The translations under genes were made by a program, and so were the position numbers. Under the pieces are notes generated by a model that saw only the letters and a list, made by a program, of their open reading frames with translations, was not told the origin of the DNA and made no database searches. This document shows, piece after piece, positions 6,070 through 61,820 of a DNA stretch of 64,000 nucleotides (position 1 is its first letter; every line of letters starts with the position of its first letter). Origin of the DNA: Spongospora subterranea f. sp. subterranea (taxonomy: Eukaryota); NCBI GenBank assembly GCA_049724395.1, contig JAUGWO010000007.1, positions 248,001 to 312,000 on the forward strand, in the 5' to 3' direction.

Positions 6070-8180
6070 ATGTTGAAACTGGCGGTGCAAAAGAAGGTGA
6101 CTTCTTATTTCCGAGCTGTGGCTTGTTGTTTAACCCACTTGGCCATGCCTTCAGACGTCAATGTTGTGATTGCCATTGATATTGTCTCGTTGTCGAATGC
6201 CTCCAGCAAATGTTTCTCTTCACTTTGTTTGAAAAGCAAAGATTTGATGGCGGCGTGGCTCAACTGGTCTTCTAACGAAGACTTTTGAGCTTTGAGGGCT
6301 TCGACGACCTCTGGTTGATGAGCCTGTTTACGCTCTTCAGCAGCTTTGCTGCTGCTGTCTTTGACAGTAGCTTTGAAGTTCTCGCGGGAAGCGAGTACAA
6401 CATATTATTCGCGTCATGAAGTCGCGAAATTCGAAACACTACTCCTGGAGTTTCAGTCAGACAATCAGCTTCCAGAATCATTCATTGAATGGCAATCTAC
6501 TAAGAAATTATTTAACTTCGTTTGTCAATCCAGTTCTCAAAGCTTACCAAGTCGGTCAGCTTTAGGAACTAGAATACTTGACCAATATGCTGACAATATT
6601 AACCAACAACAACGTTCAAGGCTAATGGAAATGCAAACCGCAACGGGGGCTCGTCTGAATTTCCTTTCTGATGCATGGCAAAACGTATCCAAGCGGCATT
6701 TGCTTGGCTGCATGCTGGGTATGTTTGGTGTGACCGTCAAATTCAGAGAACGATACGTCAATGAGATTGCCTTCGATCCATTTGAACATATCTCCCCGGA
6801 GATTGCCATAATCATCATCAACTAGTCGACGATAGTAATAGATCGCGATGTCACAAATTCGATTAACAGCTGTAAGCATTGTTTCAGGTAATGATCTTGC
6901 TTCAGTTATATACTGTGGATGAAGAAACATCGTCAACATTATCAGTGGCTGTTCGCATACACTCCTGCAGGGTTGTTTTGCGTCACTGCTTCGTGTTCGC
7001 TCAGCCTTGGAGATGCTTGCTGCGAAATACCGAACGGATGCTGAGTTTCCGGCAGCTTGAAGGTTTTTGGAACATCAGAATTTTGGTTTAGTCTTTCCAG
7101 CGCTGAAGAGATTATTCGTCCATTATCCAGTGCGTCCTTCAAACTTCACCGCGACGAAAACACGATGGCTGATATTATAATTTTAATGAGGGAGATTTAT
7201 CAAGGCTTCGCTAACAGCGATCAGGAGTATCAGTTGGTCCCATTGATTGAAAGCCGCTGGAATGTATGCGAACAGCCATGATAATGTTGACGCTGTTTCT
7301 TCATCCACAGTATATAACTGAAGCAAGATCATTACCTGAAACAATGCTTATAGCTGTTAATCGAATTTGTGACATCGCGATCTATTACTATCGTCGACTA
7401 GTTGATGATGATTATGGCAATCTCCGGGGAGATATGTTCAAATGGATCGAAGGCAATCTCATTGACGTATCGTTCTCTGAATTTGACGGTCATGTCCAGT
7501 TTTGGCAATATGTAAAAAAGTCGATGAAAAACTGTAAAATTCCTGTTCTGGCCATGACTATTCTTTCTGTTGCGGTCAATACAGCCACATGCGAGAGGTT
7601 GTTTAGCGAACTTTCACTGATTCATACTGCAAAACGTAGTCGTCTATTACCTGAAAAAGTAAGAAAGACTGCCATCGTTCGAAAGAACGTTCGCGAACAA
7701 GATGATTCAGGATCAAAACAATCAAAAGCTGACCAAAACGATTTGATTTGCACGCATTGTTCAACCAGCAGAGCGTTGCAAGCAAAGAATGGGAGATGCA
7801 CATGAACTTCCTCCTTCCGACAATGTTCATGCCCAAACTGAATCTGAATCTATCAGTGTTGCCAGCGAATCTGAATCGAATAAAGATTGCTCATTGTCAA
7901 TCTGTAATTGAGACGGAGAATGATAGTGACTGGGAAGAATCTATCGAAAACGCTGGGGTGGTGCATTAGCGAACGTCCCAGGCACTGGAACCAATTCCAG
8001 CCTCTGACCGCCGCCCGTTTCCTGATTCAAATCAGGAGAACTTTCCCCAAGAAAGGATCCTCCAGGGTATCCGATCCTGGAAAACGTCGTTGGCAGAATT
8101 GTTCCACCATTTCGAAAGGGTTGAAATGTAGTAAAAACGGAAAAACGACATTTAAACGTTTTATGAATCGCAAACCCCTA
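6070..8180 (+). mobile_element. Degenerate hAT-superfamily DNA transposon (frameshifted transposase, 5' end not found)
   Basis: Fragments KFETLLLEFQSDNQLPESFIE...LPSRSALGTRIL...FLSDAWQNVSK; QGCFASLLRVRSALE; IESRW..CEQP(L)..LFLHPQY; hATC dimerisation motif NTATCERLFSELSLIHTAKRSRL. Possible right end ...GCAAACCCCTA at 8180. Confidence 0.85.
6731..7492. repeat. Inverted duplication: ~235-bp arms at 6731-6965 and 7259-7492, ~293-bp spacer
   Basis: The arms are reverse complements with about 3 substitutions and 1 indel. The same peptide (FLHPQYITEARSLPET...FSEFDGH) appears on both strands in the ORF track. Confidence 0.95.
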
Positions 8181-8360
8181 CACAGTAACCTGTTCAGTTC
8201 TCCTTTTTCATTGGGGTCTGTTGACGTTGTTTAACGGACGACTGTTTGATGTCAGAGGCAGGAGGGGCGACCTGAGTAGCGGGGCGGCGAGAGGCCCCGC
8301 CACCTTAACAGGACCCTGGTCCACCAAAAATGATTCAAACGGCGACCGGTTTGGATCAGG

Positions 8361-10784
8361 TCAATTTGGTAATAAAATCATAGTTTTATTCGGTTTTATT
8401 GTGTTTTGAAAAAAAAAAACGGAGGTCTTCGCGACTTTTTCAAAACTGCAAAAACTTCTTTGAACTCCATGTTGTAATGTGCAATTGATCCATTTGTGAA
8501 CGTCTTTGGCAAAGACGTTCAGGTATCGGTCAACTACTGTAGCGGTATCGGTCATGTCCGGAAAACAAATGGCGAAAGCACCACCCATTGCTGATTGTCG
8601 AACCCGAATTGCATATACTCGGACGTCTTTTATCGGCATCTCGGAACCAATTGATTTGACCATCCTGAATTTACCATAACCTTTCATGTATAATCCTAAC
8701 ACCATCCAATGGAAACTGTTATGATAAAAGATTCTGCCTCTGATTATATCATCTGCGCCTGGCGTCGTTAAGCGCTGTTCTCTGTGATACCAACGGCCTT
8801 GCAGAGACCGATGTTGCTGAAGATTGCGAGACAGTGAAATCGAACGATCCGGGAGGCATGCGATTGCACAACGAGCGATTTCGATAGGCTCAGATGGAAT
8901 CGCATTAAGAAATTCGAACAAGGTGGAAACCAATGTATGGGCATTAAAACCAGTTTGGACAGGGTCTCGAGCAAATTGCTGGTTCGAGCATGTATCCAAA
9001 CAAGGCTCTGGAAAACAAAATTAGAGTAATCATCACGCTTGGAAAGCGACCTTGTTTGGATACATGCTCGAACCAGCAATTTGCTCGAGACCCTGTCCAA
9101 ACTGGTTTTGATGCCCATACAATGATTTCCACCTTGTTCGAATTTCTTAATGCGACACCGTCGGTCGAATCAGAGACAAATTCGGATGAGACTTCACGAT
9201 ATTGGTGATGGTCTGATTAAATTCGGGATCTGAGTCGTTTTTTTTCTGTGGCAGAGCAGCTACGATAAACATCGGTGAGATGCCTTCCGGGGTTTTCTGT
9301 ACAGAAAGAACGGCAACCTGATACGGCGGCATCAACTTACAATCGAATTCGCGACAACCTTCGAGGGTACCTTTAATTCAGAGAACAAATCGTCAAACGC
9401 ATTGGAGCCTTCGGCGGTTATACTGGCAAACGATGTGCTTGACGGAGGAATTAGATAATTTGGATAGATTCGACCAACAATGCTTCCATATTTTGGCGAC
9501 GACAGCAAAGCCGGGACAGTTACTGTGGCGTCGAATGATAAAGATACATGAAAGACCGAAGATGTCGTTTTCGACCGTAATCCCTCCACGTAACGGGTGA
9601 TACGTCTGTAAATATTGTCGGCCTCTGTGTTGAGGACACAGAAGTCTATAAGATTACAAGTCAAAACCGGAACGCATTCATGGCGTTGGACAAAACCACT
9701 TACTAACAGCAGCCGCCGAAATCCGTTGTATATGACGCCAAGATGGTCCTGGCAAGTTCGTCGCGATGAGTGTAAATACTTTCCTTCCATAAGATGCAAG
9801 CATCAGATAGAAGTCCACCAACACCGATTCAAGTGGGGCGTTCATCTGGCCATTTGACCGGGAAACCATTGATCGGAGCATGCACATTAGCAGCGATTCA
9901 CGAATCTCAGTGTTCGTCGGATATAGATGAGCGAACTTATCCATAAATTCATTTACACCGATGACCTCCTGTCCTTTTCCCAAAGTCATATTTGCAGAAC
10001 CCAAACGATCTTTCAATCCCTTAACGGAACTGACATAAGCAAGCCATTGTTTAGCGCACAGCATCAGATGCTTTCGGGCATTGGAGTTGCTGTGTTCTCG
10101 GACGAATGCAAGAAATTTTTCACTGCTGTAACTTCAATGATCGATATTTTCTGCCGGTCAATTGCAAGTTCGACCGCTTCAAGTTTGGCCATTCGTTCAA
10201 ATCGGTTCCGACTCACACGCGAACCGAATGCCTCCTTGCAGGCTGCACTTATCGCAAACCGGGATCCTTTTAGAATTTTCCCATCGCAGCTCAGATGGTG
10301 AACATGCATGACGCCAGCGAAAGAGCGAAAACCCCAATCAGACTGAACACAGCCGTACTTTTCGTATAAACGGACAAGACCTAAACGGGACTGCATTCCG
10401 CCCAGGCAGGTGCGTTTCTTTTTCACAGCAGAGGGAGTGCTAACCACCAAAGCCTTATCTGCCTCTAGAACAGCATCGCTACTCCTCGCTGCTGTGATAT
10501 ACGAAGTAATTAGTCTTTAAGACCGACTGCCTTCTACAGCCCGCATGTGGGTCGCAGTTATAACAAAACATTGCGCTCAGAAAAATACTCTGAGAATATA
10601 ATTGGTTAAAAATCCACCGATTGTGTTCCTTGAGACGTCCAACAGTAAACGGATGCCTGCATAAAATCCGTGTATTATCGAGTTTGCATCGAATCCAGTG
10701 GCCATCTGGGTCAAGGGCGACATTTTCCTGGCTGAGCAGCATGGCATGCTCATCAACATTTCAGGTCTTCACACCCTCCGCCAT
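8361..10784 (-). pseudogene. P-like DDE transposase pseudogene
   Basis: ATG at 10784 followed by an in-frame TGA. Fragments: WIRCKLDNTRILCRHPF (Cys/His N-terminus); FYLMLASYGRKVFTLIATNLPGPSWRHIQR (P-type HTH); SLSFDATVTVPAL...YGSIVG (first catalytic D); VAVLSVQ...FIVAALPQ; DSTDGV. Multiple frameshifts. Confidence 0.65.
8900..9155. repeat. Fold-back inverted repeat: 106-bp arms at 8900-9005 and 9050-9155, 44-nt loop
   Basis: The arms are reverse complements with 3 mismatches. Confidence 0.95.
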
Positions 10785-24803: not shown

Positions 24804-27365
24804 TTATAATTTCGATCGATGATCGCATTTTACACTGGAATCTCCTGGGACTCGGTCCTTAGTGTTTGCGGCCAGCCAATCATTTGCTATTGGAGCGTCA
24901 AGAAAATTTGGATGGATTTTGAACGCATCGATCAACTGAAGAGCGTTGGGTTGCAGCTCGGCGCATAATTCCTGAAGTAGTTGCCGCATTGATCCGGCGT
25001 CGTTACTATTAAAATATTGTTTCTCCAAATAAAATGCCATGTTCTGATTTACAACATCGACGGCACTCAAGAGACAGATTTTCGAAAGGATTGGGTTGTT
25101 ACCACCCTCAACTATTGCCTTGAATCGGACTAGTACTTCATGTTCCATATGCGCGATGCCTAATCCAAGCAGTATCGGTAAACACTTATTGAGAACCTTG
25201 AGCTTGTTTTGAGGATTTCTGGGTAATTTAGCTCCATCGCGAAATATTGAACCTGCCTCCATTAGCAATGTCTTCTGTCTAAATGCAAGGGCTGTGACAT
25301 AGAGATCAATAACTCTATATCCCGACAAACTGATGCTGTTCCGTCTAAAAAATCCATAGTATTCCATGAAAATCGCAAATGCAGATTTCGCCTTGAGAAG
25401 TTTTCCATAATCCTTAAGCAGCGCAAGCGAAACCTGTCTGAAAACAATGAACATAGAAGAAATGTCATAAATATGATTGATGCTAACTGCAGCAAAACTG
25501 AATTATCGCCTTCCCAGGTGACGTCAATTTCTGTGTCTGACATCAGATTTCCAATCAGATTAGCAGCTAACAGACCCTGGCCACCGCAGCATTCTCGACA
25601 AGTTTGCAAAACACGCTGTCTAAAGCATTGTGTGAGCAAGAAATGAGCGCCAGACGTCAGTTACCTGTGCCAAGTAGACAACGGTTTTATTCCGGAAGCT
25701 AACACATGAAGATCCTTGTTCATGGTTTCTAGGTACTGGCAGAGATTGATACCTTGTTTCTTCATCTCCATAAAAACTTCCTGAAGTTTAAGCTGAATTG
25801 CTGTTAGTGCAAGCAAGTCGTCAAATAGGAACCCGTGTTATATCATTTGTTGCTAGATTTATCGCGTAAGTTTTCGCTAGCAGCGGGATAAGCCGTATCT
25901 GATGGCTTGAGTATTCAATGATAGGGGTTTCAGGTTGCCCTGGAGAAATGGCAAACTGTTTTCGTGTAAACGCATAACGCAAGGCTATTGCCAATCCAAG
26001 TTTGGCAAAGCTAATGGCGGAAATAGCTACACCTAATGGAAGCGGTGAGTTTGTAGCCCAATAATTTGATAATACTGAATACCTATTCTGCCCAAAACCA
26101 GTTGCCCGATCATCTTGGCAAACCTTTCCGCAGGGGAGCTAATCTCAGATACGTATCGACCGTCTTCGCCAACGTGCGAATTGCGATCAACTAGAGCATC
26201 ACGAGGAATTCTTACATTGGTCAGCCATAACCTTCCGTTGTCCACCTGTGGCGAAACGGATTCTTAAACAACAAAAAAAGTTGTCGAAGTAATAACAGGT
26301 TTATACCCCGTTAAGCCCTGAATTTGATTTAAGGAATCACCACACGAAAATGAATATTTACAGACCGCTTTTCGCCCCACAATCCATGATGTGTACACCA
26401 GAGACCACATTATTGTTTTCATCGCGTAGCCTAACAAGGAACGCATGGACTCCTTCATTTACGCCATCAACGAAGAGTTGAGCGAACACAATTCCATGTG
26501 AGCAATGAAGTGCCAGACCACCTAGATAACAATATTAATTATGGCAACAAATTACCCTGTTGTTTAAGGTGACCGATAACATGATTTGAGTAACTGATAA
26601 AGGGAAGCGTAAGGAAAGAAATGCGAATTACAATCACCTATCCAGTATTTCTGAGCAGAATCAGACGGCGTATTTAGGATGAATTCTTTGGTTTCCGCAC
26701 ATAAGACAGCTACGGTTTCTATCGATCGGGCGTCGGATCCATGGCCTAATTCAGTAAGACAAAAACAACCACGCATCTTGAGTGTTTGCACGTCTTTCCC
26801 TGCTTGTGGGTCAGAACAATGATACCTTCATAGGAATAAAAAATCACATACATAACGATTCTCGGTGATAATCACTGCCAACTATTGCAAGCGTCGCTCC
26901 GAATCTGATAACATTACATTCATGAATCGCAACGTTAAAGTTTAAAATTGTTGAAGTGCTTACAAACTGAAAAGCACACCGCATTTGGTAAGCATGTTAT
27001 TGCCAACATATGCAACTGGTTCCAGTGTTGCTGCCCACCGAGCAGGATTCTAACAATGGAATCACTATTTCATTCCGAAAACAATCGGTTAGAACCCTTA
27101 CTTCCCAGTAATCTCTGAAGCAAAACAAACCGGATTCTTGTGTGAAAACGCGAACTTGCTCCATGACTAATGATCTTTGCTCTGAAACACTCATTCCCTA
27201 ATCAACAATCTGAGCAAAATATTCAGCGAAAGTAGAAAAGCGTACAGTAAAGTCTCTCTTCCGGAAAATCGGATGGGTTGCAAGGAACTCCATTACCGCA
27301 CGCCGATGGCTCCAGTAGTAAGGAGTGTCTAGCAGAAGGTTTATACCTGCGACGTCGACATCCAT
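24804..27365 (-). CDS. Peroxisomal acyl-CoA oxidase
   Basis: GCFCLTELGHGSD; AQKYWIG; DNGRLW; LQTCRECCGGQG; TWEGDNSVLLQ; ALQLIDAF; C-terminal PTS1 -SKL. Confidence 0.95.
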
Positions 27366-27525
27366 TCTTGAATAACGTTCGCGTGATAGAATAGAAATGG
27401 GCGGACTTAATAAGGTGAGTTTCGTAAGGTACATCATTGTACAGTACACAGTGTCGACGGAGGGCGAAACAGTTTATATTCGGCGATACGGCAGAGTCAT
27501 GACGCGCTGACTACAGTAGCAAACC

Positions 27526-30500
27526 ATGTCAACGGAAGTTGCCTTCCTGCCAGGGAGAATCGTCACATGGTTTAAACGCTCGGCATCGTTGAATGACACA
27601 CATATGGAATCATCGCTCCGATGGAAATAAACTGACGTTTATTTTGCTGAGATAGATGAACTGCGTCCATTCACAAACTTCGATACGAGAGCGGTGTAGG
27701 TTGCCATGGATGTTTTTTTCAAAGTAATGGTTCACTTATTTTGGTATCTGAACTCAGTTTAGCGGCTTCAAATCAATTCTGTCAAGTGCTTGATGTCGTG
27801 TTGTTCATACACAGTCAAAAGTTCCACTGGCATCTGACTCTGCATTTTCGATTCGTCGCTCTTCACCTTCAGTAAAATTGTACTGATTTTGGGTGACATC
27901 GTTGCAAGCAACGGGAGATGTGCAACGCTAACTGGATGATGCTAACCGCGATAATTGCCATAAAGAGCAGTTGGGCTTTCATAACGCTGCTTATCATATC
28001 TCAAGAAATGATTTAAAACCGACTACAACGATAGAGCTTTTGTCTAATGTACCCTTTAACGATAAAAAATCGATTGGCGATTTTTTTGGTGATAGATTGC
28101 GTCGATAGAATTTGCGAAACATTGATACAATATAGCATTACTGAGCTGAGGCTTTTCCGTAAGCCCCAACAAATACATCGGATGAAGATGCGTCTACACC
28201 AAACGTCACAGACGTTTGTTCTATCAAACTTCTTTTTCAATAATTCATGACTTTTTCAAAACTTAGCTATACTTGCATCAGGGTTGTCGATTGGGTCATC
28301 ATTGTCCTTGATCCCCGAGACCATCTGCGAGTACATATCAAAGAGCAGATTGACGACGCTGAACGAAAGCGGATTAACAACGATTGTGCGTGACACGTGT
28401 ACGGGTCCGTCCTCTGTAGCCCCATCATCACCAGTGACACTTCCCGCCCGCAGCGTCTTGGACCTGTTCACTCTTCGTTATCGGCCCGTTCTGCAAAGAT
28501 GAGGGCTGGTGATGCAGCATATCCATCGACCCAGGCGGGATCTCTCCCAAACTCCACTCCCGCTGCCCCCATTTTAGCTCGCGTTCTGTCAAACGAACCT
28601 GCAAATGAGCATGGTCCGAATTCTCTTGGAATCCGCTGCGTACCCGAATCGTATTCCAGGAACGCAGATCATGATGTTCAGGGAAATGCCCAAGCAGATG
28701 CGGCATCTGGGATGCATGTGCGAGATAAAAACACAATACCAAATTTTGATGACAAATCTTTTCTTAGGTTGAAAATCTTGTCAATTGCCCTGAATCATCG
28801 CATAAAAATGAAGTATTTCTCCCAAAAAAATTGATAAGTGTTCCAAGTGGCGTTTCCGAATTTGAAAAAGCAATTCCTCTTGACGCTACAGCTGCAATAC
28901 AGCAATCTTCCCTTGGCATCAATGAGGTTCTCCTATGTTGGATCCCTACTTTGCCAGTTCTGAATTGAACCTTCAAAGATTTTTTCAAATGTTCATTCGC
29001 TGAAGTTGGAGAAGCTTCATTACGCCGCCTCGTCCATGACCTCAAGTTCGATTGAGAAAGCGTCATTATCCATTGCTTCGAATTTAGTTATGCAGGCTGG
29101 TGCCGGAAGTTCCGCTCAGAACGTCAAAGATGATGTGTGGAGTTTGCTGTATTTTCACTACGTTCACTAATTGTCTGCTCAGTCCTCGACAAAGCCCAAT
29201 GCCGAAGGACTTTTAGCTTGCCGGCTCCCGCAACCACCAGATGGTAGATGGCTTGGATGTGGCCAAGGTGCTCACGCCCCAGTTCCATGTCTTGTGTGGA
29301 AACAGAAAGTCATAGGAATGCAAAAATATCGTTCTGAATTTTGATCATGTTGTTTTGTACTAGGGGTTGACCCATTCTAATCAAATTCACGATCAAATAT
29401 TTGCTTTCACGTCGACGCACTACTTCAATAACACAGCTTCGCTCAGATGCTCTATGCCTCAGCCTCCATTGCCTAGTCATGCTGGACCTTTAGTCGAAGG
29501 TTGTGGACAAGTAAGTGGGTTTTATTGTTGATATCACGCATACATTGATGGTTTGTAGTTGTCGCATCCAGATCGTGTTTGTGGTTCATGGATTTCAGCA
29601 GGCGTGTTAACTCATCTGGAAGCAAAACAAAAGCTTTTAGAGTGGAGACGGTCTGCTTCCTCATACGACAATAGCAAAACTGGGTATGTCACACAAAATT
29701 ATTTTAAGTCGACAGTTAAGAATTATGTAGAGTTCGCGTTGGCATGCGAAAACTGCCAGACAAAGATCGGTGCATAGTGCCGCAACCACCAGACGGCTCA
29801 AAGAGAGGATGTCTTGCAGTAAATCATCACCGCGATGCTGTATGCGAGTCATGGAAGGGGTTGGGCGTTACTTCTTTTCAGCGCAATCAGGCCGCGTCTT
29901 TTGGAGTGGCATAATATCCATCCTGATCCCGACAGAAAGCTCTGCTTTTTCTTTCAACCACCTGATGGAGCTCACCGTGGATGTGGTGCCCCTCATCACA
30001 AAGGGAAAATTTGCGCTTCATGGGCAGAGATCGACGTTCTAACTAGACAAGAGGTCAAAATGCGTCATTATTTGGTCTTGATCTTTTGCAAATTCGTTCC
30101 GTTAGGCAGTAAAAGCTGTACGTTTATCGCGAGCAGAAAATAAACCAAAAAAGGCTGTTAAACCGCGAAGTGATGCGGAAAAGTTATGTAATCTTCCTCA
30201 GCCTCCGGACGGTCGAGTAATTGGGTGCGGTGCTTCGTTTCATCGGATGGCAGTTTGCGACAGTTGGTCCGCTTTTGGAGTCCCTAACCGTGAAGGCGTC
30301 AAAGTATTTATAATTTACTCCTCTTGAGACGTTTTCACCATTAAGATTATATTTTTATTAGGCCTACATTGATAAGTATCGGGTTGATTACTGTATTACA
30401 GGCGCACAGGCTCGAGTCTGCCGTGCCTTGCAACCACCAGATGGCAGAGTTAAAGGCTGTGGTTTAGGCTGGCACAGAGGAGCATGTCCCTCATGGAAAG

Positions 30501-31565
30501 TATGTTTCGCTTCAGTTAATGGTTAATGTATGTTGAACCTTAATTAGGCTATCGGTTTGACTGACAGAAAAGCTATCATGGAGCACATTCAGTCTTCTGC
30601 TGAGGCCGGCATATCTGTCAAATCTGAAACTGATAACGGCGCTGGATTGATCAGCAGAAGGATAAGTTTCAGCGGCATCTCGCGTCGTCAGGAATTTCCA
30701 GAATCTGCTGACGACCCCGATACCAGCGTCCAATATTTTTTAGAAGGGGATTTTGATCGTTCTATTCAAGAGTTAACCAAACGGTGAACCCTTTTGTTTT
30801 CGATTGCCACCATACTCAGTTGTTTCAGGATTCAGCAACATCCAGACCGTGCATTGTTGTACAATAACAGAGGCGTCGTATACGCAGAAAGAGGTTGGAC
30901 TGACTTAGCCATAAGGGACTGGAGCAAGGTAGTCTGGCGACTCCCCTGTTCATCCAATCATTAATTCTTCCCGCCAAAAGTCTCTAGATTTGGATCCCAA
31001 TTATTCTGATGTGTTTGCGAATCGTGGTCTGGTCCGCGTCAGCGTTGCAAAACCGGTTCTGGCCAGCGATGATTGCCGAAAAGCAATCTCGTCCTCACAA
31101 GGTTTATGCAGCGAGTTAGTTAGGTTGTCTCTTGCCATGGCTTTGTACGAATCTGGAGATTTTGCTGGTTGCTGTGATGAATGTCGCCGGATCCTAGAAA
31201 TTTCATCCTCGAACTTCCGCGCCCGCTGTTTAATGGGTCTTGCTAATGGCGCATTACGGCAATTTGACAAGGCTGCTGAATGTTTTCAACAGTGCTTGCA
31301 CTCAAACATCGATAACGAGCGTATATCATCACTCCTTAACATTGCTAAAGATCAAATCGGAAGCGGTTGCCAATCTGCGTCTACCAAAAGAGTATCGGAT
31401 TCTACTACCGACGACAATGGAGATGAGACAATGACTATGGCGGATGAGAATGAGAATGAAAGCGATGCTCACGATGTCGACGTGGAAGATTCGTCAGACG
31501 ACGATGATGTTGATGGTCACGATGACGATACAGAATCAGATGACAATAGTGATGAAGACTCCTGA
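27526..31565 (+). CDS. Multi-exon protein with six tandem CCHC zinc-finger-like QPPDG modules, TPR domain and acidic tail (5' end uncertain)
   Basis: Modules begin at 29219, 29448, 29771, 29943, 30187 and 30419 and are linked by GT-AG introns (one frame break near 29875). TPRs: ALLYNNRGVVYAERG, DPNYSDVFANRG, ARCLMGLANGALRQFDKAAECF. D/E-rich tail. Confidence 0.75.
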
Positions 31566-31669: not shown

Positions 31670-32378
31670 ATGGTGAAGTTCTCTTCTTTACTGTGTGGTT
31701 CCTCCATAATCGTGCGGGGTCTAAAATAGAATCACAAATTTAAATAACACGGTTTATGTTGATTCTAAATGTTGACACTCTTCTTGCCTTGTTTTAGAGG
31801 AGGTTTTTCCAAAGCCCGTGGGGACGGAGCCACTCTCATTTCTTGCCCTCGCAAATGCAATCTTTATACAAGGTAGCTGCAACATTTGGAGGCCGTCGAA
31901 CGACGGCAACGTTAACGACAGCAAACAAAACCTTGCTTGAGGTTCATAAACAAGAGGCGCTCCGAATTGATCAACTTCGTGGATTTTCGCTGCCGCGCTT
32001 TTCTGCCGGAGACATGATCAAGTATATTTGCGCTCTTAGCATTTCGTAATCTGTTTTTTATTTTGACCTATGTCCTAGATTTGAAATGCCCCAAACTATG
32101 TCGCCAGATGAAACTCGCAAATGCGACGTCATCGAAGGCCTCGTCATTGCTCGACGGAACCGAGGGCATGATTCGACATTTACTGTTCGAAGCATCGTGG
32201 ATGGTCTCGGATGCGAACAGACAGTCCCGGTATACAGTCCCTGGATTCGTAATTTTCAGGTAAATCATCGCTGGTTCGCTGTTATAAGCCTAATTTTCTA
32301 CAGGTTACTAAAAGACAGCGTACACGCCGAGCAAAGCTGTATTATATGCGGCAAAGGCCTAACAGCTTGGAGATATAA
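31670..32378 (+). CDS. MRPL19: Nuclear-encoded mitochondrial ribosomal protein bL19
   Basis: LPRFSAGD; IEGLVIARRNRGHDSTFTVRSIVDGLGCEQTVPVYSP; RRAKLYYMR. Start uncertain. Confidence 0.88.
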
Positions 32379-32860
32379 CTGATAAGATTTATACTGTTAT
32401 GAATACATTCATTCAGCGGATCCCCCCTTAGATTGATATCCTGCTGTTTTCACTTTTTATTGACGGGAATCGATGGTGAGTTAATAATGATGCGCATTAC
32501 GATGGCTGTAGTCAAGTCGCTTGAATGCTTTTTCATGATGAGGCTCAAGATGTTCATGTTCTAGATCCGAGAGGCCCGTAAATTGCAGGCGTCTTGAGTC
32601 ATAATCGTGGACATGTGGAAACCTGTTCTCAGGCAACACCCCTCACATGCTGACTGGCCGCTCTTTATAGAAGGTCTAGTTAAACAAGTTGTTCTTGCGG
32701 ATCCATACTCGGCTTCAGATAAATTGGATTTCCAAACAAAGGCTCCGTTCCCGCAAATACCAGACGGGCAGTGGTGGTTTCCCGTTCTTTGTGGAGCAAA
32801 GTCAGAAGTCACTCTGTGTCGCTATTTCCCTGGATTCCTCACGGACTTACGTCTGTGATC

Positions 32861-34346
32861 ATGAAAATCTGTTTTTATGAAATTCTTGGCGTTTCTAGAG
32901 ATTGTTCGGATGTGGAGTTACGTAAAGCGTACCGGCAACAGGCGCTGAGATGGCATCCCGATAAAAACATCAATGACAAGGAGGTTGCAGAAGAGCGCTT
33001 CAAATTGGTGCAAGAAGCGTTTGAAACACTGAATGATCCAGATGAACGCGCGTTTTATGATGGCCATAGGACTCAGATCCTGAAGGAAGATGATATTACA
33101 CCTGATGAGCAGTCGGCTCATGATCCGTTTATAGATGTTCATTCGTTTTTTTCGTCGTATTATGATGGATTTTTTGACGAAACGCCAAATAACTTCTTTA
33201 CGGTATTCGGCCAGGCGTTCGAGGCTATAAACAAGCTAGAAGTGCTAGGGAAAACGAACGATCGCGATTATCCAGAGTTTGGGTCGTCGATCAGCGAATG
33301 GCTTGATGTTGACAAGTTTTACCGAGAATGGTCAAATTTTACTTCTGGTATTTTATGCAACCACGTCGCATCTGGAAGAAAATACTAAATATTGTTTAGG
33401 CAGAAGTTTTACTTGGGCAAGTCATTGGAGAGTTAACGACGCACCGGAGCGACGCGCGAAAAGATTTATGGAGAAGGAGAACCGCGTGTATCAAACCAAA
33501 GCGAAGAAAAAATACATCGACCTGGTCACATCTCTGGTCATGTTCGTTAGAAAAATTGATCCCAGAGTTAAAATTCATTTACAAAACGCTCGCAAAGCGC
33601 GAGAGGAACGGGAAAAGGCAATTGCTGCAAAAGAACTGAAACAAAAACATGTATATGCAGCGGAGCGTCAAGCCTGGCTTGCAAAAGAACAAGAACGGAT
33701 ACTAGCTGGTGAAGAACGTAGGCGTGAAGCATACGGTGATATAGACGATGCACCGGAGCTAGATTCCGAAGATGAACCTATCATTGAATGTGTAGCTTGT
33801 GGGAAGTTTTTCAAAAGCGACAAACAATATTCGAATCATGAACGATCCAAACGTCACCGTTCCATGGTGGCATCTCTTCGTGACGAATTGTCGCTCGAAG
33901 AGCAAGGTCTGGCTGATCTAAACATTGCTGATGATGACACTGCACCGCAAGCTCTTGCTGATATAAAGACGGTCGATGAAGACCCTGTTTGTCCTCTTGA
34001 TCAGCAGGCACCTTCGTTAGCTACTGATGAAGAAATTTTTTCGGTAAAACCTATACGAAAAAAGAACAAGAAGTTGCAAAAGACCGCAAACTTTGGCATC
34101 GAAATCGCTGAAGTAAAGTCGGAAGATGAATCAATCACACAAACTGATGAAGTTATACCTACTGAGACTAAGAAAAGTAGACGACGCGCAAAACTGAAAA
34201 GTAAATCGACGGAAATCAATCCACCCGAAGACGCGTCTCAGTCAACTGGTCAGTTCGCCTGTGGCAAATGCCGTTCAAAGTTTCCTTCGAAAACTCAACT
34301 GTTCAAACACTTGAATAACAATCCTTCACATCGGGCACTTAAATAA
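32861..34346 (+). CDS. DNAJC21: DnaJ co-chaperone with C2H2 zinc fingers (Jjj1/DNAJC21), 2 exons
   Basis: J-domain with HPD; FYREWSNFTS; RFMEKEN; FVRKIDPRV; CVACGKFFKS...NHERSKRH; C-terminal CGKC...FPSKTQLFKHL. Confidence 0.93.
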
Positions 34347-51816: not shown

Positions 51817-52807
51817 TTACGGTTGCAGCTGTGCTGGTACAGTAATATCGTGCCGGCAAAGGGCACAGAATCGTTTGACTCGCAACCAGGTTTCAATGCA
51901 ATCCTTGTCGAACTGTGAGATAGAGATAGGCCCGTTTAGCTCACTAGCTCTCCGAAAAACAACCTCAACAACACCTACCGAGTGGCCACAGGGCAGGGTC
52001 GTGATCTCATTGCCGATCACGAAGTCGTTCATGCAGATGGCGCATTGGGTCGTCACGGAACTGTTGGATTCATTGGCCGATGGAGGTCCTTGATATCTGC
52101 TGTGTTTCAATCTGGCGATCATTCGTTCCGAAGCCCTTTTCTGCCCGACACCGCACACGTGCACTGATAGAGCAAAACAAGTCAAAAACACAAATTGTTT
52201 CTGAATGACACGCGATGGTCAACTGACTGATGAACATGGCGACGGGAAAACATAGGCAGATGACAATGCAGATCAGCAAGGGAATGAAGATGTAAACGTA
52301 GACGATGGCGATTAAAGCAATGGCGTAGTAATAGGATATGGGGGCAGTTGTCCGGCAGGGCGATAACGACTTGGCGTAGAACCAAATATTGCCCAGGATC
52401 CAGGCGAATATCGTGTAGTATTGCGAGATGTTGCTCGCGACCTTGATCCAATTGGGCGGCTGCGATTGGCGGAAGACGGCGAAATCGACCAACGACACCA
52501 GTAATGGGATGCGGACGATGAGACGCGACGAGTAGAGAATGATCCACGGTTTGATCGGCTGTGGAGCACAATGTTCAGTGTTCCACGATATCGCCAATAC
52601 CACCGACGACATGATCAGCTCGATCAGCGAATAGATTATGATGAGCAGCTGCAATGGCGCCCGTCGCCAAACCAACCGCAGTCGGGTGAAGAGCGGCGGC
52701 GGCGGTTGCGGGCGGCGGCCGGTTCCCTGGCCAGCCCCGTCCATATCCTGTGGTTGACGATCGCCCGCTGACGTTGATAACGGCCCTCGTTCATAACCCG
52801 CGATCAT
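51817..52807 (-). CDS. Multi-pass membrane RING E3 ubiquitin ligase (3 exons)
   Basis: TM helices with WILGNIWFY...CRTTAPISYYY...LICIVICLCFP; RING CAICMNDF...LPCGHS|FDKDCIETWL...CALCR. Confidence 0.88.
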
Positions 52808-53135
52808 TCATCCCCAGAACCACAAACCGCATTACTGATTCTGTAAATGCCGGAGAGGGCAGGGCGGAATGTAGCGCCAGGAGAAAGCGCGACGGAACGA
52901 CCCCCCTTCCGGCACACACACACATCCGGTCACCGCGGGGCAACGGACCAAACACACACGCGATGGCCAACTCCGATGAACGGAATATCGGAGGGAACAT
53001 GAGGACGAAGCGGAACACGATTGAGGTGTGTGTTGGACGATCACGATGAAGTACCTGATGGGATATCGTGTACTGGGTGAGATATAAAGGGGGGAGTGTG
53101 TTCGACGACCGGACAACCACGTTCGAGAATATTCG

Positions 53136-56100
53136 GTGGCGGTGGTGGCGATGGGCGAACGGGCGACGGCCGATGATCTGGATAAACCACGAGCCGATGA
53201 CCAGGATGACGACGACGACCTCAAACAGCACGATCGCGTTCATCAGGAACACGCCCAGCGGTTGACGCTGGCGGCAACCGCCCGGGCCACGATCGTCGCC
53301 AGTCGTCTCATGCATCTATCGCAGCGACGATCGGGGAATGGGGAACGGTTCAGCGCCCAGAGCCAGACACCATCACAGGTGTTTCACGACGGCGACTTCA
53401 TGGACCGGGTGAAAAGCGATCCATCGGCGGCGGCGGCGGCGGCCGGTGCATTACACGCCGGTCATGTTGGCGTTCAACTCCCTGACCAGATCCCGACGAA
53501 CATTAAAGGGCCAGTCGAGGTGTCCATCGACCAGATCGAACGACACCGCCTTGGCGACCTTGATCGATCGGACGGTGAGTGAGCCATCGAACGGGTCGGA
53601 ATCCGATCGGAAGGGCGTGTTCCTGATGGCGGCGAGAGCCGTCCTGGGTCTGTGCCCGATCGGGTCGGCCGATAAAATGGAGGGCGATTGTGTTCGATTG
53701 GTGAAGGAGGCGCTGGTCCCCGATCAGTCGATCGACGACCTGGTGGCGATACTGGATCAGCCCGAACACGTTTATCGCCTGATGAAGGACGACCAGCGGA
53801 TACGCCGATCGAACATCAATCGATCCAAGACCGAGTTCCTGCAGTTCGACGCGTTCAGTTCGTGGAAGAAATCGGAGAAAGACGCGATCCGGTCGCTGCT
53901 GAAGGAGTCGGACGCGTTCATGAAGAATCAGGAGAAGTTCGTGGCCGATAAACGGAAGGCGATCGCGAATGCGATGGGGGATCGGAGGAATACAGCCGAG
54001 GGCAATAAGGCCGACGATGATCAATGCTGCTCGTGCTGTTTACCATCGTCGGGGGCGGCGACATCGCGAGCCGCCCCCGCCGACGGCGAACGAAGGCGGT
54101 CGTCGGTGGCGCGATCACAGGAACAGCGATCGGTGTCGACGAGCGAGGTGGTGGTGATGGAGGGCGGCCATCCAGAACGGCCCGTCTCGTTCGCCGTCGG
54201 CCTGAACTGGATCACGATCGCCCTCGTGCGATACGCCAACAGGAACAACCCGGAGGTGGTGGTGAAGGTCGGCGATGATGGTAAGGTGTGTGTTGGGGCG
54301 GGGGCGATCCGTCCGTCAATGGTTCGCGATCTGATCGATTGCCCCCGATAGTGATACAGAAACAGGCGATGAACATGGCCTGGCTGGACGACAACTCGCT
54401 GTTCGTCATCGACTGTTGGTGTCGTCGTTATGGGATCAGGGAATCGCATCGCGCCCTGGTCCTGTTGGAGCTGCTGTCGCGATATCCCCAGATCAGCGCC
54501 GCGTATTTCTGGGACGCCATCGACCTGTACGAGCCGCTGGATCTGGCCCAGACCGCCAACTCCCTCAAACTGATCGAACGATCGACCCTTCACCGCCTAT
54601 CGTCGTTATCGTCATCGTGGTGTCGCGCCTGTCTATCGTCGTATCACGATCACTTCAACGGCGACACCGCCGTCAAAGGACTTGGGGAGTGTGTTCGACT
54701 GGCGATCCTGTGCAGGAAACTGAACGGGACCGCCGACGATCTGGCCAACGAGACCGCCCCGCGATATATCGACCGGATCTGCGAGGCGGCGCTGGCCAGG
54801 CGCTACGAATACGTGGTGGAGGCGGGGCGGAAGATGAAGGACGACCAGGTCCGGCGGCAGTTGAACGGGAGCGGCGATCACGACCATCGTCAGCAGGGGC
54901 GGGGCGTGGTCACCGCCGACCCGCAACGGGACACGATCATCGGCGATTGCCGGATCGTCAGCTCGTTGCACCTGATCTATGTGATGCAGCTGCTGAAGAA
55001 GGAGATTGACGACGATATCCACAACTTCGGCCCAATCCTGCAATCGTCGGCCGGGTTCAACGCCGCCCAGGAGACGTCCAGTCTGTATTTCCCCCTGATC
55101 TGGACCGATTTCCAGCTGTTCCTTCGGGTGCAGAAATCGCTGATCGACCTGGACCGGGAGACGGTCGGGAACGCGCCCGAATCCCTCGACCCGTATATAT
55201 TCCAGCTCTATAGCGAGCTGCGATCGCTATACGAGTTCTTCGCGCCGCACGTCGATCTGCCCGATATCAACGTGGGCGAGCACTTCGCCCCGTTCGTGGA
55301 CCGGTGGTTGGAGATCCAGAAGGAGCAGTTCTCGTCGAGCCGGATCGAGGGCGCCATTCGCAGCGATAAGTGGATGGCGATCGGCGACACGATGTGCACC
55401 ACCAGCGTTATCGACGTGTTCGCCCTGTTATACCCGTTGGCCGACGCCTTCCAGCACGCCCCGTATTCGGCCGCCCAATCGATCAAGTTCGCCGACCTGC
55501 TGGCGTCGTCGGTCAGCTACTACGTGCGGCGTCTGGGGGAGATGATCGCCCACGATATCCATCAGTCCCATGGACGATTCACCGAGGTGATGGCGCTGCG
55601 CCTCAACGATATCCAGATCTGTAAAGTGAAGTTGGGCGATATGTTGAAGGACATCAACCTGGAACGGGCGTAGGGTTTTGTGATTCGCCATCGCCGTCGT
55701 CGTTCCTGATTCCGCCGAATTATTGATCAGGTATGGGCGACCACCGAAACTGACCGAATCCGAGGTCGACGACGACGACGAGTTCGAGCGGTTCATGGAC
55801 GGGGGAATATCGAACGAGGTGATGGACGAGCTCGGCTGTAAATCCACGTTCAAGTACATTCAGGAGGTATTGTGTCGTGGTGATGGCGATCACGATCCGA
55901 TCGTGGGTTGAACTGTGGGATTTGGGTGTCGACAGACGGTGGAGTCGTCGGCGTACGAGATCGCCACGTCGATGAGCACGTTGTGGGGCGCCCTGGTCAC
56001 CGACCTGATCCTGCACAGGCCGCTCGACCTGGCCATGGATATCGACACGGTCGAGCAGTTCCTGGGGCCGTTGTGGGAGGAGCTCAGCGCCACGATCGAG

Positions 56101-56608
56101 TCCATGATCAAGAGCGTGTTCCAGACCCAGGAGCTGTTCAGGTCGTTGCTCCATTGTGTCGTGATCGCCCTCGAGTATCACCTGATCCCCCAGTCGACCA
56201 AACTCACCATGAACATCTGCCAAGTCCATCGGGCGAAAACGGCGATCGAGGTCAGTTCGCGATCTGTTGTTGCGATTTGTGGTCGACACTGATTTTGGCG
56301 ATCGGCGACAGCTGATCAGCGAGTTGTTCAAGTATTATGGGCTGGAGACGGCGGCGATCGAGGGAGTGAAGGCGGTGGTCAGGGTTCGGTATATGATCGA
56401 GCTGGAGCTGGGCGATACGGCGGCGATCGCGGCGATCTGGGCGACGTGTCCCGACGAGAAGGCGAAGGTGTCGGAGGAGGAACGGGTGAGGTCGCCGCCC
56501 TATCTCACCCGACCCCATCTTCGTCGGATCCTGCTCCTGAGGAAGTCGTTGGGGGATCCCACCGCCACCGCCTTCCTCAAGGCCAATAAGAAACCGGGAT
56601 GGTTTTAG
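53136..56608 (+). CDS. Munc13/MUN-domain (MHD1) tethering-like protein, multi-exon
   Basis: EHFAPFVDRWL...AIRSDKW...CTTSVIDVF...ALRLNDIQ matches the MHD1 pattern. The 5' part has frame irregularities. Confidence 0.65.
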
Positions 56609-56775
56609 GCCCCGCCGCCCCCGATCCCCTCAATATCCGCCAACAGAATAAAACAACACATTGTCATTTTTCGGGTCCACGAGATCGGCGCCGGATCGGT
56701 TCGGTGTCGTCATCACGATATCACTAGGGTTAAAGGGAGGTCCAGAACAACCAAACACGATCGGGATTCCATTGA

Positions 56776-56836
56776 TCAATCAGGTCGTTTCCCGGTGATG
56801 GTGAAGGGGTTTCAGGTTCGAATCCTGTTTGATTGA
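56776..56836 (+). ncRNA. tRNA-like mini structure with a perfect B-box, no anticodon arm
   Basis: GGTTCGAATCC at 56815-56825 within a CAGG/CCTG stem; terminal stem TCAATCAGG/TTTGATTGA. Confidence 0.3.
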
Positions 56837-57406
56837 CGCGATCGTGACGATCGACACAGAATGGCAATTTCTCCATTGTATTGACTATATAGAACAGCTC
56901 TTTTACCGTTCTTCGTCAGATCGACTGTCGAACCGTCTCGGTAAACCCCGTTCCCCCAAAATCACACCGACCGTTCCGGCGCTATTGGATAGCATTGTGA
57001 GGTGCTGATCGACCCGACGATTCTGGTGTCTGGACCACAAGTTTCCCCCGAAACCGATCCGACAGGTCTCTGGAAATGTTGATCGGTGAATGGGTGTTAT
57101 TGTGGTCTGTTTTCGGCCACAAAACCACCTTTCCAATGCGATCTGGGGTCGATCAGATCATGTGACCACTGGTCTCCCGATCTCGTCCACCAATTCCGTT
57201 CGATCCGTACATCTGTACTTGTCGTGATCAAACGGTATTGGATTGTGTTCAGTGATCAATGTCGAATTATGGCGCTACAGTTCCGTACCCCAATCCCCTA
57301 GTTCGGTCAAAGGTACCAGACCGGTTCTATCGATCCATCGATCACCCCCCGGCCCCCAACAACCAACGCCGGTCATAATCCTAATCGGCCTGTGATCGTG
57401 TTGGAC

Positions 57407-60400
57407 ATGACGCCGCCCATGTTGTCGATCGTGCTCCCGATCGCCGTCCTTCTGTCGGGGGTGGCGCTAGCGGCCGGACCCGCCGTCGTCTCGACCAGCT
57501 GGCAGTTCAAGAACATCGTGGTCGACTCGATGGAGATCCGCGCCTTCATCGTCAAGGTCAAGTTCGACCAGCCGATCTACATCAATGGCCTACCGATCAC
57601 CCACGCCAACCAGACCTACATCGCTCCACAACACGATCAGGGCGGGTGTAATGGCGGTGGCGGTGGCGGTGGCGGTCCAACATGGCCAGCCCTGACCGTT
57701 AGTATGGCCGGCACCACTAATATCTCTTGCACCAACTTCCTGTTCCAATCGCGGTTCACCCAGTCCGATTTCCCCAACTACCTCATGGCGACGTTCCTGA
57801 CGCGCGACGTCGGGTCGACGTTCCTGGGCGCGATCGGGTCGTTCATGATGCCGGAATACGTGGACCCGAACGGGATCGCCTTCATCAAGCTGATGTCGGC
57901 CAAGCAAGGAGGGCAGGTGCAGATGTCGGAGGCGACCGATTCCGATATTCTCACGTGTGGCAACAAGGTCATCACCATCGTCCCGTCGGCGATCAAGAAC
58001 GCCCAAGGCCAGCCGATCACGTCGTCCACGATCACGATCACGTCGTCGCCGACCATGGCCACGTGCGATTACGATGGGATCTCGGCGTTCAAGGACGCGT
58101 TCACGTACGTGGCCGATATGGCCAAGAAGCTGGTCCTGGACGCGTCCCTGTTCGATCAGTTCAAGTTCCTTCAGGGGTCGTTGGAGAGTCGCGACGTCCT
58201 CGACGCCTGTAAACAGCTGGTCGCCCCGATGTTCAGCACCAAGGTGTTGACCAAGACCCTGTTGCCCACACAGCAGTGCCTGTTCCCTCAAGGCAGTCGG
58301 GAGTTCGCCGCCTCCCCCTGCTGTAATCGCACCCTGCAATACACCCAGTGCTGTGCCCCCGTTTCGGTCGTCGCCAATCTCACCGTCATCAAGGACATTC
58401 AGACGAGCGTGATCCAGTCGACCTGTTCCAATCCGGATAAGATCCTGCTCAGCCTGTACTCGTATATCAATTCGCTGAACCCATCGTTGACCTTGTTCGA
58501 CACCCAAGATGAGCTGTCGAACCGGTGGCAGAAGTTCACCACGACCTGTTCCAACCTGATCTACTCGCAGAAATGTGCTGTCGACGCCGACTGCCTCTAC
58601 TCGAAGAGCTGCGACAGCAATATGGGTTCGTGCAAGGTCCCATGGGGGTTGGACGCCGACCTCACACTGCAGTGCTATTACGACCAGTTCGACCCACAGC
58701 ACCGAACGGCGTTGGCTGGGTCGTGGGGGATCAGCGACGACAGCAAGACCGCCTTCGTCGCCAAGATGGGATCCCTTCTCCTCAAGGACGACTGTGTCGG
58801 CAATAACGCATTCAATCTGCAATCGCGGTCAGCGCCCTCGCCGTGATGTGTTCCGACGTCGATCGATCGCCGTCGTGTTTGTTGAGTCGCGCTGACCTGT
58901 GAATTTGATCAGGTGCCAGGGCGATAATAACGGCTGCACAACGTGCACGGAATCGAATCGGACCCTGTGTCTGGCCGAGAAATCCTGCAACTGGAACAAC
59001 CAGATCCAGAGCCAGCAGGAGTGTCTGGCCACGAATCCGGTCGACAGCTACACGTCGTTCTGTGGCCAGTGTTGGAACGGTGGCGCCAGTTGTTGGTCCC
59101 AAACATCACCCGATATGTGTGTCGCCGATTTCTACCGCACCAAGGCGGATTGCGATGGCGCCAATCTCAACCTGACCTGGTAAATCATCTCGTATATCGA
59201 TTATGACCCCCCCCGATCGCCTTCCTTAGAACTGGACGATTATAGGTATACACCGGCGTGGCAACAAGGGCAATGTGTTGACGCCTCCAAGAAGAACGCC
59301 TCGTCCTGTCTGCCATCGACGATCTGTAGCCAGGTCACCAGCGATGGACGAGGATGTGATTCGGTGAGAAATGATGGGTCGTTCGGGTTTTTTGGGGCGG
59401 TGGCGCTGATTGTGCTGTAATATTAGGGCAATACCCATATATGTTATGCACCGAATGTGAACCAGACCGTGTGTAATAGTGCCTCATCAGTCACCAGAAC
59501 ACACGATGGCCAACAATACAATCTGGTAATTGAGGACGGGGACTGACACTTCATTCGTATATAAACACTAACTGGTGATATCGTTTGTTTTCAGCAATGG
59601 CAATCGTGGTTGAACAATCAGACCGGTCTATGCGCCGTCTCCAAACAATGGCAATCGCAGCTCCCGTTCACCCCATCGTTCTGCTCCAGTTTCTCGTCGG
59701 CCGTGGGGAATAAACCGGTCCTGTTCTACCCCGGTCGAACCTGGACCGAAGGGCAGCTGAACACGCCCGAGAAATGCGCCATCGGGCGGTGCAATTGGAA
59801 CGACCCCCAGGGGCGCGAATCCGGCTGGAACTTCGGCAAAGCGCAATGCGAATCGCGATCGATGTGTAGCCAGAGCTGTCCACGATGCCGAACCTGGCAA
59901 TGGGGCGGTCCAGGGTTCTGCTACGCCACCGCCACCAATATCACCATGAACATCTGCTTTGAAAAACAGGGAAACTGGATGGACAACGTCGTGGGCCAGA
60001 CCGGACGCTGCTTCTTCATGCAGGATTCGGCGACCGGGTCGCAATCGGCCTGTGTCGCCGCCGGGGCCAAACAGGGATTGCAGACCAAGTTCGCGTCGTG
60101 CGAGGGCGAATCCATCGACACGTGCGCGGCGCCGTCGACCGCCAGCGTCGGCGAGCTGGGCGCGTTCCTCAAGTGCCAATGGGACATGAACGCGCCGTGT
60201 CGCACGCCCCAGGAGTGTGCCCAGGCCGGGCGATGCAGCGACGACGACAAGTCGGTGTGGACGAACGATGGCGTCTCGCGTGCCGGTGCATGTCGTGTCG
60301 ATAACCACCCCGATCAATATGGATGGCCGGCTGATTGCGGCAGTCAAAAGTCCAAGACGCTCCCACGTTCGAACACGACGTTAACCTGGTCCAGGTCCGA

Positions 60401-61657
60401 TTCGTCGAGTCGTTCCCCGTTTCGGGTATTGACCGGATTGTGTGTGTCGTTTGTGGCGATCACAGGTTCCCCCTGAAATGTATCGATCCGGTTCCGGCCA
60501 ACGCCAGCGCCTGCGCTGCGATCGGCGGTCAATGGGTGACCCGAGCGAAGACCAAGGAGGAGTGCCTGGCCGATAAAGCGTGTTTCAGCGAGGGATCGAA
60601 CTGGGCCAACGGGATGAGCTCAACGCAATGCAGTCGGTGTTCGGGGACGACGTCATCGCTGTACGACTGGTCCCCTGGAAAGTGGATCAACGGGTCGATG
60701 ATCCCGTTCCAATGGGCGCCCAAGCAGTACTCGTCGGTGAACGCCTGGGCGAAACGCGTCGACAATATGAAGCAGTGGGATGCGCTCATCAATCCGGCCA
60801 TCAACTTCTACCTGGGTTCGGCCCAATATGGCCAGCTCACGTCGAAGTACTCGCTGGTCGCCGACCTGTACAAACAGATTTCGTGCGCGTGTTCACCTGG
60901 TCATGAAACCCGACAGTGTTTCGGGTCGATCGAAGCGTCGCCGGTCGGATCCACGTACCTGCAGAAGGGGAAGCTGAACAAGCTCGAGACGCCGTTGGGT
61001 GTTGTGAAGGCCATGGTCGCCAGCGATAACAAGACGCACGCCAATCGTCGTCGGCTGCTCGCCGATGGGTCGGTGTCGATAACGGTGTCGCAGGTGACGG
61101 CTCAATCGTTGGCCGTCGTGGTGAACAATCAGCCGAACTATGAGGTGGTGCTGGCGGCGCCCAGCACCAGTAAGGTCGTTGGGGAATTGGCGGGCGATGG
61201 GAGCGACATCTCCGGGTTCTCCCCGTCCATCACGTCGGCGTCCGTCACGCTGAACTTTGCCCAAACGATAACGGTGAACAAGACGACGTACCCGGTCGGC
61301 TGGATCGGCAAGCTGGTCGTGAACAAGGTCGTGGCCATGAAAGGGATCTCGGTGGTCGTCGGTAATGGGTCGGTGACGACAACGAACATCACGACGGATG
61401 GCACGTATTTCCCCATATTCCTACAGCAGAACTGGAAGACGTTCGCGGTCACGACCAAGGCGCCAACATCGACGGCAACGGTTTACAATCTGCAGTCGTC
61501 CGGCGCGCCAACGACTGCGACCACGGCCGGACCAACAACAGCTGCTCCACACACGGCCGCCACCACAGCTCCGACATCGTCAGCGACACCATTCACGTCC
61601 TCATCTATGATCATCACATCTGTTCTCACCACGTTCCTCGTGGTGTTCCTGTTATGA
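57407..61657 (+). CDS. Large Cys-rich secreted, probably GPI-anchored cell-surface protein (multi-exon)
   Basis: Signal peptide MTPPMLSIVLPIAVLLSGVALA; dense Cys/Trp modules; RRRLL site; Thr/Ala/Pro stalk; terminal hydrophobic MIITSVLTTFLVVFLL with no cytosolic tail. Confidence 0.85.
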
Positions 61658-61820
61658 ACGATATCGCTCAACGGACGATATTGTGTTATAAAATCTCAGC
61701 CTAGCGCGTTGACGGTACCTAATAAATCCGTTGAAGTTGTTCGAATGGACAAACGACTCCGAAATATATTTGATCCGAATTAATATGGCGTTTCTAAAAC
61801 ACATCCCTGGGAGGACAATG

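Follow-up and report, generated by a model that had tools for sequence, protein, structure and literature searches.

The locus examined here raised the question of whether a series of Cys- and His-containing motifs belonged to a single protein, what kind of domain they formed, and what such a protein could bind. It lies in a 64,000-nucleotide (nt) stretch of DNA from Spongospora subterranea f. sp. subterranea (contig JAUGWO010000007.1, positions 248,001 to 312,000 of the forward strand), called the window below, and coordinates are counted from its first letter. A previous reading of the sequence alone had proposed six tandem copies of an unrecognised zinc-finger-like module at 29219-30496, fused to tetratricopeptide repeats (TPRs) and an acidic tail. 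The six motifs were found there on the plus strand, in three different frames and with short introns between them. It was concluded that the gene with six modules and TPRs is real, spliced and expressed. Its Cys3His-type module, which occurs in 6-7 copies, is apparently undescribed.

The gene occupied positions 28499-31565 of the plus strand and encoded 836 amino acids (aa) in 12 exons, once one base of the window was dropped. All 11 introns, of 45-58 nt each, could be resolved to GT-AG borders.

28499-28717, 28768-28926, 28979-29134, 29183-29308, 29364-29510, 29559-29683, plus strand: coding exons 1-6 (spliced public runs)
29731-30053, 30106-30303, 30362-30499, 30548-30783, 30829-30928, 30981-31565, plus strand: coding exons 7-12 (spliced public runs)
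29875, plus strand: extra base in the window, missing from 6/6 covering runs

The start codon at 28499 was taken as the first ATG past the 5'-most contig end (28453). Sequence from the gene stretch was present in 17 of the 24 public runs listed (five studies). Eight runs were aligned; six covered the module gene, and two raw-read runs yielded no read. Every intron was supported in X1, X5, X14 and X13 (11/11 each), the last of which seems to be a duplicate of X5, with contigs identical in lengths and depths, while 10/11 were supported in X6 and 9/11 in X8. An RNA library was on record for X6 and X8 only; the remaining covering runs were nevertheless spliced. A single contig of 1872 nt covered 28453-30783 and hence held all six modules in one transcript.

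In the window as written, the frame shifted between modules 3 and 4 and a stop followed after 371 aa, a break at base 29875 that the sequence-only reading had overlooked. Dropping this base opened the 836-aa frame. The RNA-type runs point to a likely assembly error at this position, or the base may be a strain allele. With the base absent, the transcripts joined the modules in frame, and the RNA-type runs together with the 1872-nt contig bore out the proposal that modules, TPRs and acidic tail are joined by splicing in one gene.

The first part of the protein was divided as follows (HMM, hidden Markov model).

28499-29209, plus strand: N-terminal region, aa 1-187, weakly conserved (identities of 17-30% in 30-aa bins)
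29219-29411, plus strand: module 1, aa 191-236, crossing intron 29309-29363 (spliced frame, HMM)
29448-29648, plus strand: module 2, aa 249-299, crossing intron 29511-29558 (spliced frame, HMM)
29771-29912, plus strand: module 3, aa 325-371 (spliced frame, HMM)
29943-30132, plus strand: module 4, aa 382-427, crossing intron 30054-30105 (spliced frame, HMM)
30187-30382, plus strand: module 5, aa 446-491, crossing intron 30304-30361 (HMM, orthologue comparison)
30419-30601, plus strand: module 6, aa 504-548, crossing intron 30500-30547 (HMM, orthologue comparison)

The modules recurred with a period of 57-76 aa. A six-frame scan of the window gave five unspliced motif matches, module 2 being split by an intron, and 100 mononucleotide shuffles gave none. 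No further copy passed E 0.5 in a search of the window with the module HMM (next best, E 0.54). The same model detected no module in the N-terminal region, and exon 1 had no Pfam match.

Relatives were sought by word index among 5.8 billion proteins, and three such searches found four. The closest came from Plasmodiophora brassicae, the clubroot parasite; plasmodiophorids belong to the Phytomyxea within Rhizaria. This protein, PBRA_006298 (P0003/P0005; CEO98184.1; SPQ95247.1), was annotated only as a hypothetical or TPR protein. It shared 52.7% identity with the window protein over 719 columns; the order of its six corresponding modules was the same, TPRs and an acidic tail were also present, and on these sequence features it is the orthologue of the window gene. 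The relationship would place the window in a related plasmodiophorid. A seventh, N-terminal module was located at its aa 22-67, at a distance of 171 aa from the next one. P0004 was a fragment of the PBRA_006298 gene. P0007, a protein of 444 aa on a 9.6-kb contig, was more compact: its three modules preceded weak, divergent TPRs, and its tail was basic; its first TPR aligned with the first TPR of P0003 (BLAST E 2e-21, 255 columns). A single module was present in P0008, which seems to be an unspliced fragment. Scans of prokaryotes, viruses, phages and metagenomes gave chance matches only. The lineage of P0007 would tell the age of the module.

Altogether 17 modules from four proteins were compared. 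The first Cys, Gln-Pro, Gly-Cys, the third Cys and Trp were invariant in 17/17, an invariance that arises partly by construction, as the modules were gathered by a pattern demanding Cys, His and Trp; the HMM found no degenerate copies in these four proteins. A His was placed 3-5 residues past the second Cys in every module, and several modules had two adjacent His residues. The first Cys-Cys gap was 12 residues in 14 modules, 17 in two and 11 in one. The spacing C-x12-C-x4-H-x4-C, given previously for the window modules, was exact in three of the six (modules 1, 4 and 5), whereas, counting by the aligned His, it was x17/x4/x4 in module 2, x12/x5/x4 in module 3 and x12/x4/x3 in module 6. Module 2 contained a five-residue insertion in the hairpin that was common to the P. 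brassicae orthologue. Past the Trp, a conserved x3-Gly-hydrophobic-x-Thr/Asn/Ser/Asp stretch and an amphipathic helix followed, which made a unit of ~46-51 aa. The motif was therefore as first described, but the unit had been drawn too short, since the conserved part takes in the helices after the Trp.

Modules at the same position in the window protein and in P. brassicae were 56-86% identical, while neighbouring modules within the window protein, which are paralogues, shared 24-43%. The two modules adjoining the TPRs were the most conserved (module 5, 86%; module 6, 76%). In the module tree all six orthologue pairs grouped together with bootstrap values of 85-98, one of them starred, and many residue positions that differed between neighbouring modules were kept between the species. 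Taken together, these observations suggest that the array is old, that it has not been homogenised and that each position is kept for a role of its own. The divergence of the copies at the DNA level was likewise evident, with identities of 47/48/32% by codon position and 37/117 at four-fold third positions. Purifying selection, which had also been proposed, was supported by the contrast between the orthologous modules and the N-terminal 180 aa (17-30%), and by the strain differences: the coding sequence had nine, two of them taken from letters at junctions, of which seven were synonymous, and the two that changed a residue fell in the N-terminal region and in the tail, with no module altered.

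The structure of one P. brassicae module, the counterpart of module 5, was predicted by AlphaFold2 from a 10-row alignment. The model reached a predicted local distance difference test (pLDDT) score of 90.4 and a predicted template modelling (pTM) score of 0.71, the five models scoring 90, 89, 88, 74 and 73. Strands 11-12 and 18-19 were modelled around a Pro-Asp-Gly turn, between Cys8 and Cys21, and the hairpin was followed by His26, Cys31 and two helices, one at 32-36 that carries the Trp and one at 42-56. The module is thus predicted to be a compact domain of 46-51 aa, whose His and third Cys take the places that they have in the latter half of a zinc knuckle. From the same model we infer that the first and second Cys come close to each other through the hairpin. 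The four Cys3His ligands likely hold one zinc ion per module. In the broad sense of a Cys3His finger, the four conserved putative ligands were present in 17/17 modules, gathered by that pattern, and one module was modelled with confidence as a small single domain.

In a reducing compartment, Cys and His residues point to metal rather than to disulphides. A hydropathy scan revealed neither a hydrophobic N-terminus nor a membrane segment of the kind expected for a secreted effector (maximal 19-residue mean 0.88), hence a reducing compartment and bound metal would be favoured. It is very improbable that the Cys and His residues do something other than form a single zinc site per module, such as holding another metal or a cluster, sharing sites between modules, or serving as a redox or metal buffer. 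The adjacent His pairs and the unusually long first Cys-Cys gap would fit such arrangements. Yet each module kept three Cys, no more and no fewer, and one or more His in the same order, the N-terminal module of P. brassicae stands alone, and a module by itself was modelled with high confidence.

Known families were then compared with the module. With a Pfam threshold of E 10, P0003, P0004, P0007, P0008 and the module exons gave no zf-CCHC match, and none to IBR, RING or ubiquitin-binding families was obtained, although most matches above 0.1 are removed by the HMMER filters. The module matched no catalogued family or solved fold among those searched, in line with the original impression that it had no name. 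It was considered improbable that the module only looks new and is a diverged form of a family known from other resources (InterPro, AlphaFold DB clusters, CDD).

The zinc knuckle, or ZCCHC motif, is given as C-x2-C-x4-H-x4-C in PMC12787238, according to which RNA or single-stranded DNA is bound by the best-known Cys-Cys-His-Cys fingers. The modules resembled the Gag-type knuckle in their Cys-Cys-His-Cys order, their occurrence in arrays and the x4-His-x4 spacing of 4/6 window modules, but differed in a first gap of 11-17 residues (the hairpin) instead of 2 and in the invariant Trp and two helices that follow. Membership in zf-CCHC was rejected on this motif and on the Pfam result. In the parkin IBR, according to PMC3104551, C365, C368, H373 and C377 form the second zinc site. 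The Cys-x4-His-x3/4-Cys tail of the module, followed by a helix and often with an aromatic residue before the His, was similar to it. In contrast to the IBR, the modules had no four-Cys first site and no RING1/RING2, their first gap was 12 and not 2, and they were present in six or seven copies. Each module offered just three conserved Cys and a single conserved His, and there was no RING or IBR match; membership in IBR (C6HC) or RBR was also rejected.

The C-terminal part of the protein contained two further features.

30722-31349, plus strand: TPR region, ~aa 589-765, long enough for about five repeats (Pfam, PDB matches)
31410-31562, plus strand: acidic tail, aa 786-836, 27/51 Asp/Glu (residue count)

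Tandem 34-aa TPR motifs scored above the Pfam cut-offs in P0003 (TPR_1, 48.7 bits; TPR_2, 56.7 bits) and in the last exon of the window gene (TPR_1, 29.3 bits). PDB matches, SGTA among them, extended over aa 592-765 of the P. brassicae orthologue, and the nearest solved TPRs were those of OGT, SPINDLY, STIP1/HOP and RPAP3. The window protein shared with such scaffolds (OGT/SPINDLY N-terminus, STIP1/HOP, RPAP3) ~five TPRs and significant sequence matches; unlike them, it had no catalytic domain, and its TPRs came after a zinc-module array. The array (aa 186-550) was strongly basic, with net charges of +19 in the window protein and +22 in P. brassicae (isoelectric point 9.3-9.5), while the tails carried -27 and -23, respectively. 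The acidic tail was also present in the P. brassicae orthologue and absent from P0007.

We tentatively favoured a protein in which the basic six-module array would bind RNA or DNA at several points and the TPRs would recruit a partner protein, at a probability somewhat below even. Such a multi-finger reader was preferred because the positions are separately kept, the array is basic, the tail is acidic and no signal peptide or membrane segment was seen. Each module would fold around one zinc ion within a flexible, beads-on-a-string array, and each position would read its own element, as the variable positions are kept between species yet differ between positions. The acidic tail could mimic nucleic acid and compete for the basic surface, thereby damping binding or easing handover. 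Like C2H2 arrays and tandem CCCH/CCHC proteins, the window protein had small Cys/His modules, an overall basic charge and position-wise conservation; unlike these, it had its own ligand spacing and predicted fold, and its linkers were long and variable. The C-terminal end of P0007 contained a basic Pro-Lys-Arg cluster, which we take to resemble a nuclear signal and counted for nucleic-acid binding.

Several observations weighed against a nucleic-acid reader. No basic residue was invariant, the best columns having Lys/Arg in 9-10/17 modules, and the invariant residues look structural. The module spacing of 57-76 aa varied, unlike that of DNA-reading fingers with fixed linkers, and the C-x2-C knuckle that defines RNA-binding CCHC fingers was absent from the modules. 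The three-module array of P0007 had a net charge of 0 and the extra N-terminal module of P. brassicae one of -4, the tail of P0007 was basic, not acidic, and the window protein matched none of the nuclear-signal patterns tried.

Nearly as likely is a possibility in which the modules are zinc-stabilised binders of proteins or peptides, in a ubiquitin-binding or IBR-type manner, and the protein serves as a multivalent scaffold or a co-chaperone that lacks a nucleic-acid ligand. The Cys-x4-His-x3/5-Cys plus helix tail matches the spacing of the parkin site described in PMC3104551, the lack of an invariant basic residue and the neutral array of P0007 fit this proposal, and TPRs are protein-binding repeats. 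On the other side stood the strongly basic array of both plasmodiophorids with its separate acidic tail, the failure to match IBR, RING or ubiquitin-binding families, and the absence of IBR chains among the fold matches of the module, which is a weak test for so small a domain. A more specific form of the nucleic-acid reader, rated as rather unlikely, would be a new zinc-finger fold (a Cys-hairpin-Cys/His-Cys tail on a Trp-anchored helix pair) acting as a position-coded RNA/DNA reader, linked to TPRs and observed to date only in Rhizaria-like protists.

Other elements of the window were also recorded. The unspliced frame across intron 29684-29730 (29650-29760) presumably resembles an integrase zinc-binding motif; this was taken as chance, since the RNA contigs splice the intron out. 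Just upstream of the module gene, at 27245-28350, contigs spliced a plus-strand GT-AG intron (27696-27757) and left no frame above 88 aa; this stretch, which adjoins a gene spliced on the minus strand, is possibly a non-coding or antisense transcript. Downstream, 31780-34346 contained a ribosomal protein L19 family gene and a protein with DnaJ, zuotin-homology and C2H2 regions, with no sign of a functional link. A likely hAT transposon relic at 6322-10516 included a hAT dimerisation domain (7251-7802, Pfam E 1.3e-06) and inverted repeats of 214 nt (99%; 6731-6944/7279-7492) and 113 nt (95%; 8893-9005/9050-9162), which could be an assembly fold-back. The GC content climbed from 47-49% to 54-62% within ~2 kb and stayed high over ~52000-64000, which could reflect a compositional domain, inserted foreign DNA or a chimeric join. 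Large Cys-rich frames in this part (57302-61657) probably encode secreted or surface proteins; those at 59565-60473 and 60335-61654 matched no Pfam family.

New zinc-finger families are now rarely found. With a confident model, 17 divergent natural copies and position-wise conservation, the ligand and any recognition code are directly testable with small recombinant domains. If the protein were only a protein scaffold, the module would still be a new domain of the Pfam type, albeit a less interesting one. If the position-coded reader were true, the lineage would possess a programmable repeat of its own for binding nucleic acid, coupled to a TPR adaptor. Little is known, to our knowledge, about gene regulation in plasmodiophorids, which are obligate root parasites, and if this conserved, lineage-restricted protein with no match in the searched libraries were a regulator, it would offer a handle on plasmodiophorid gene regulation.
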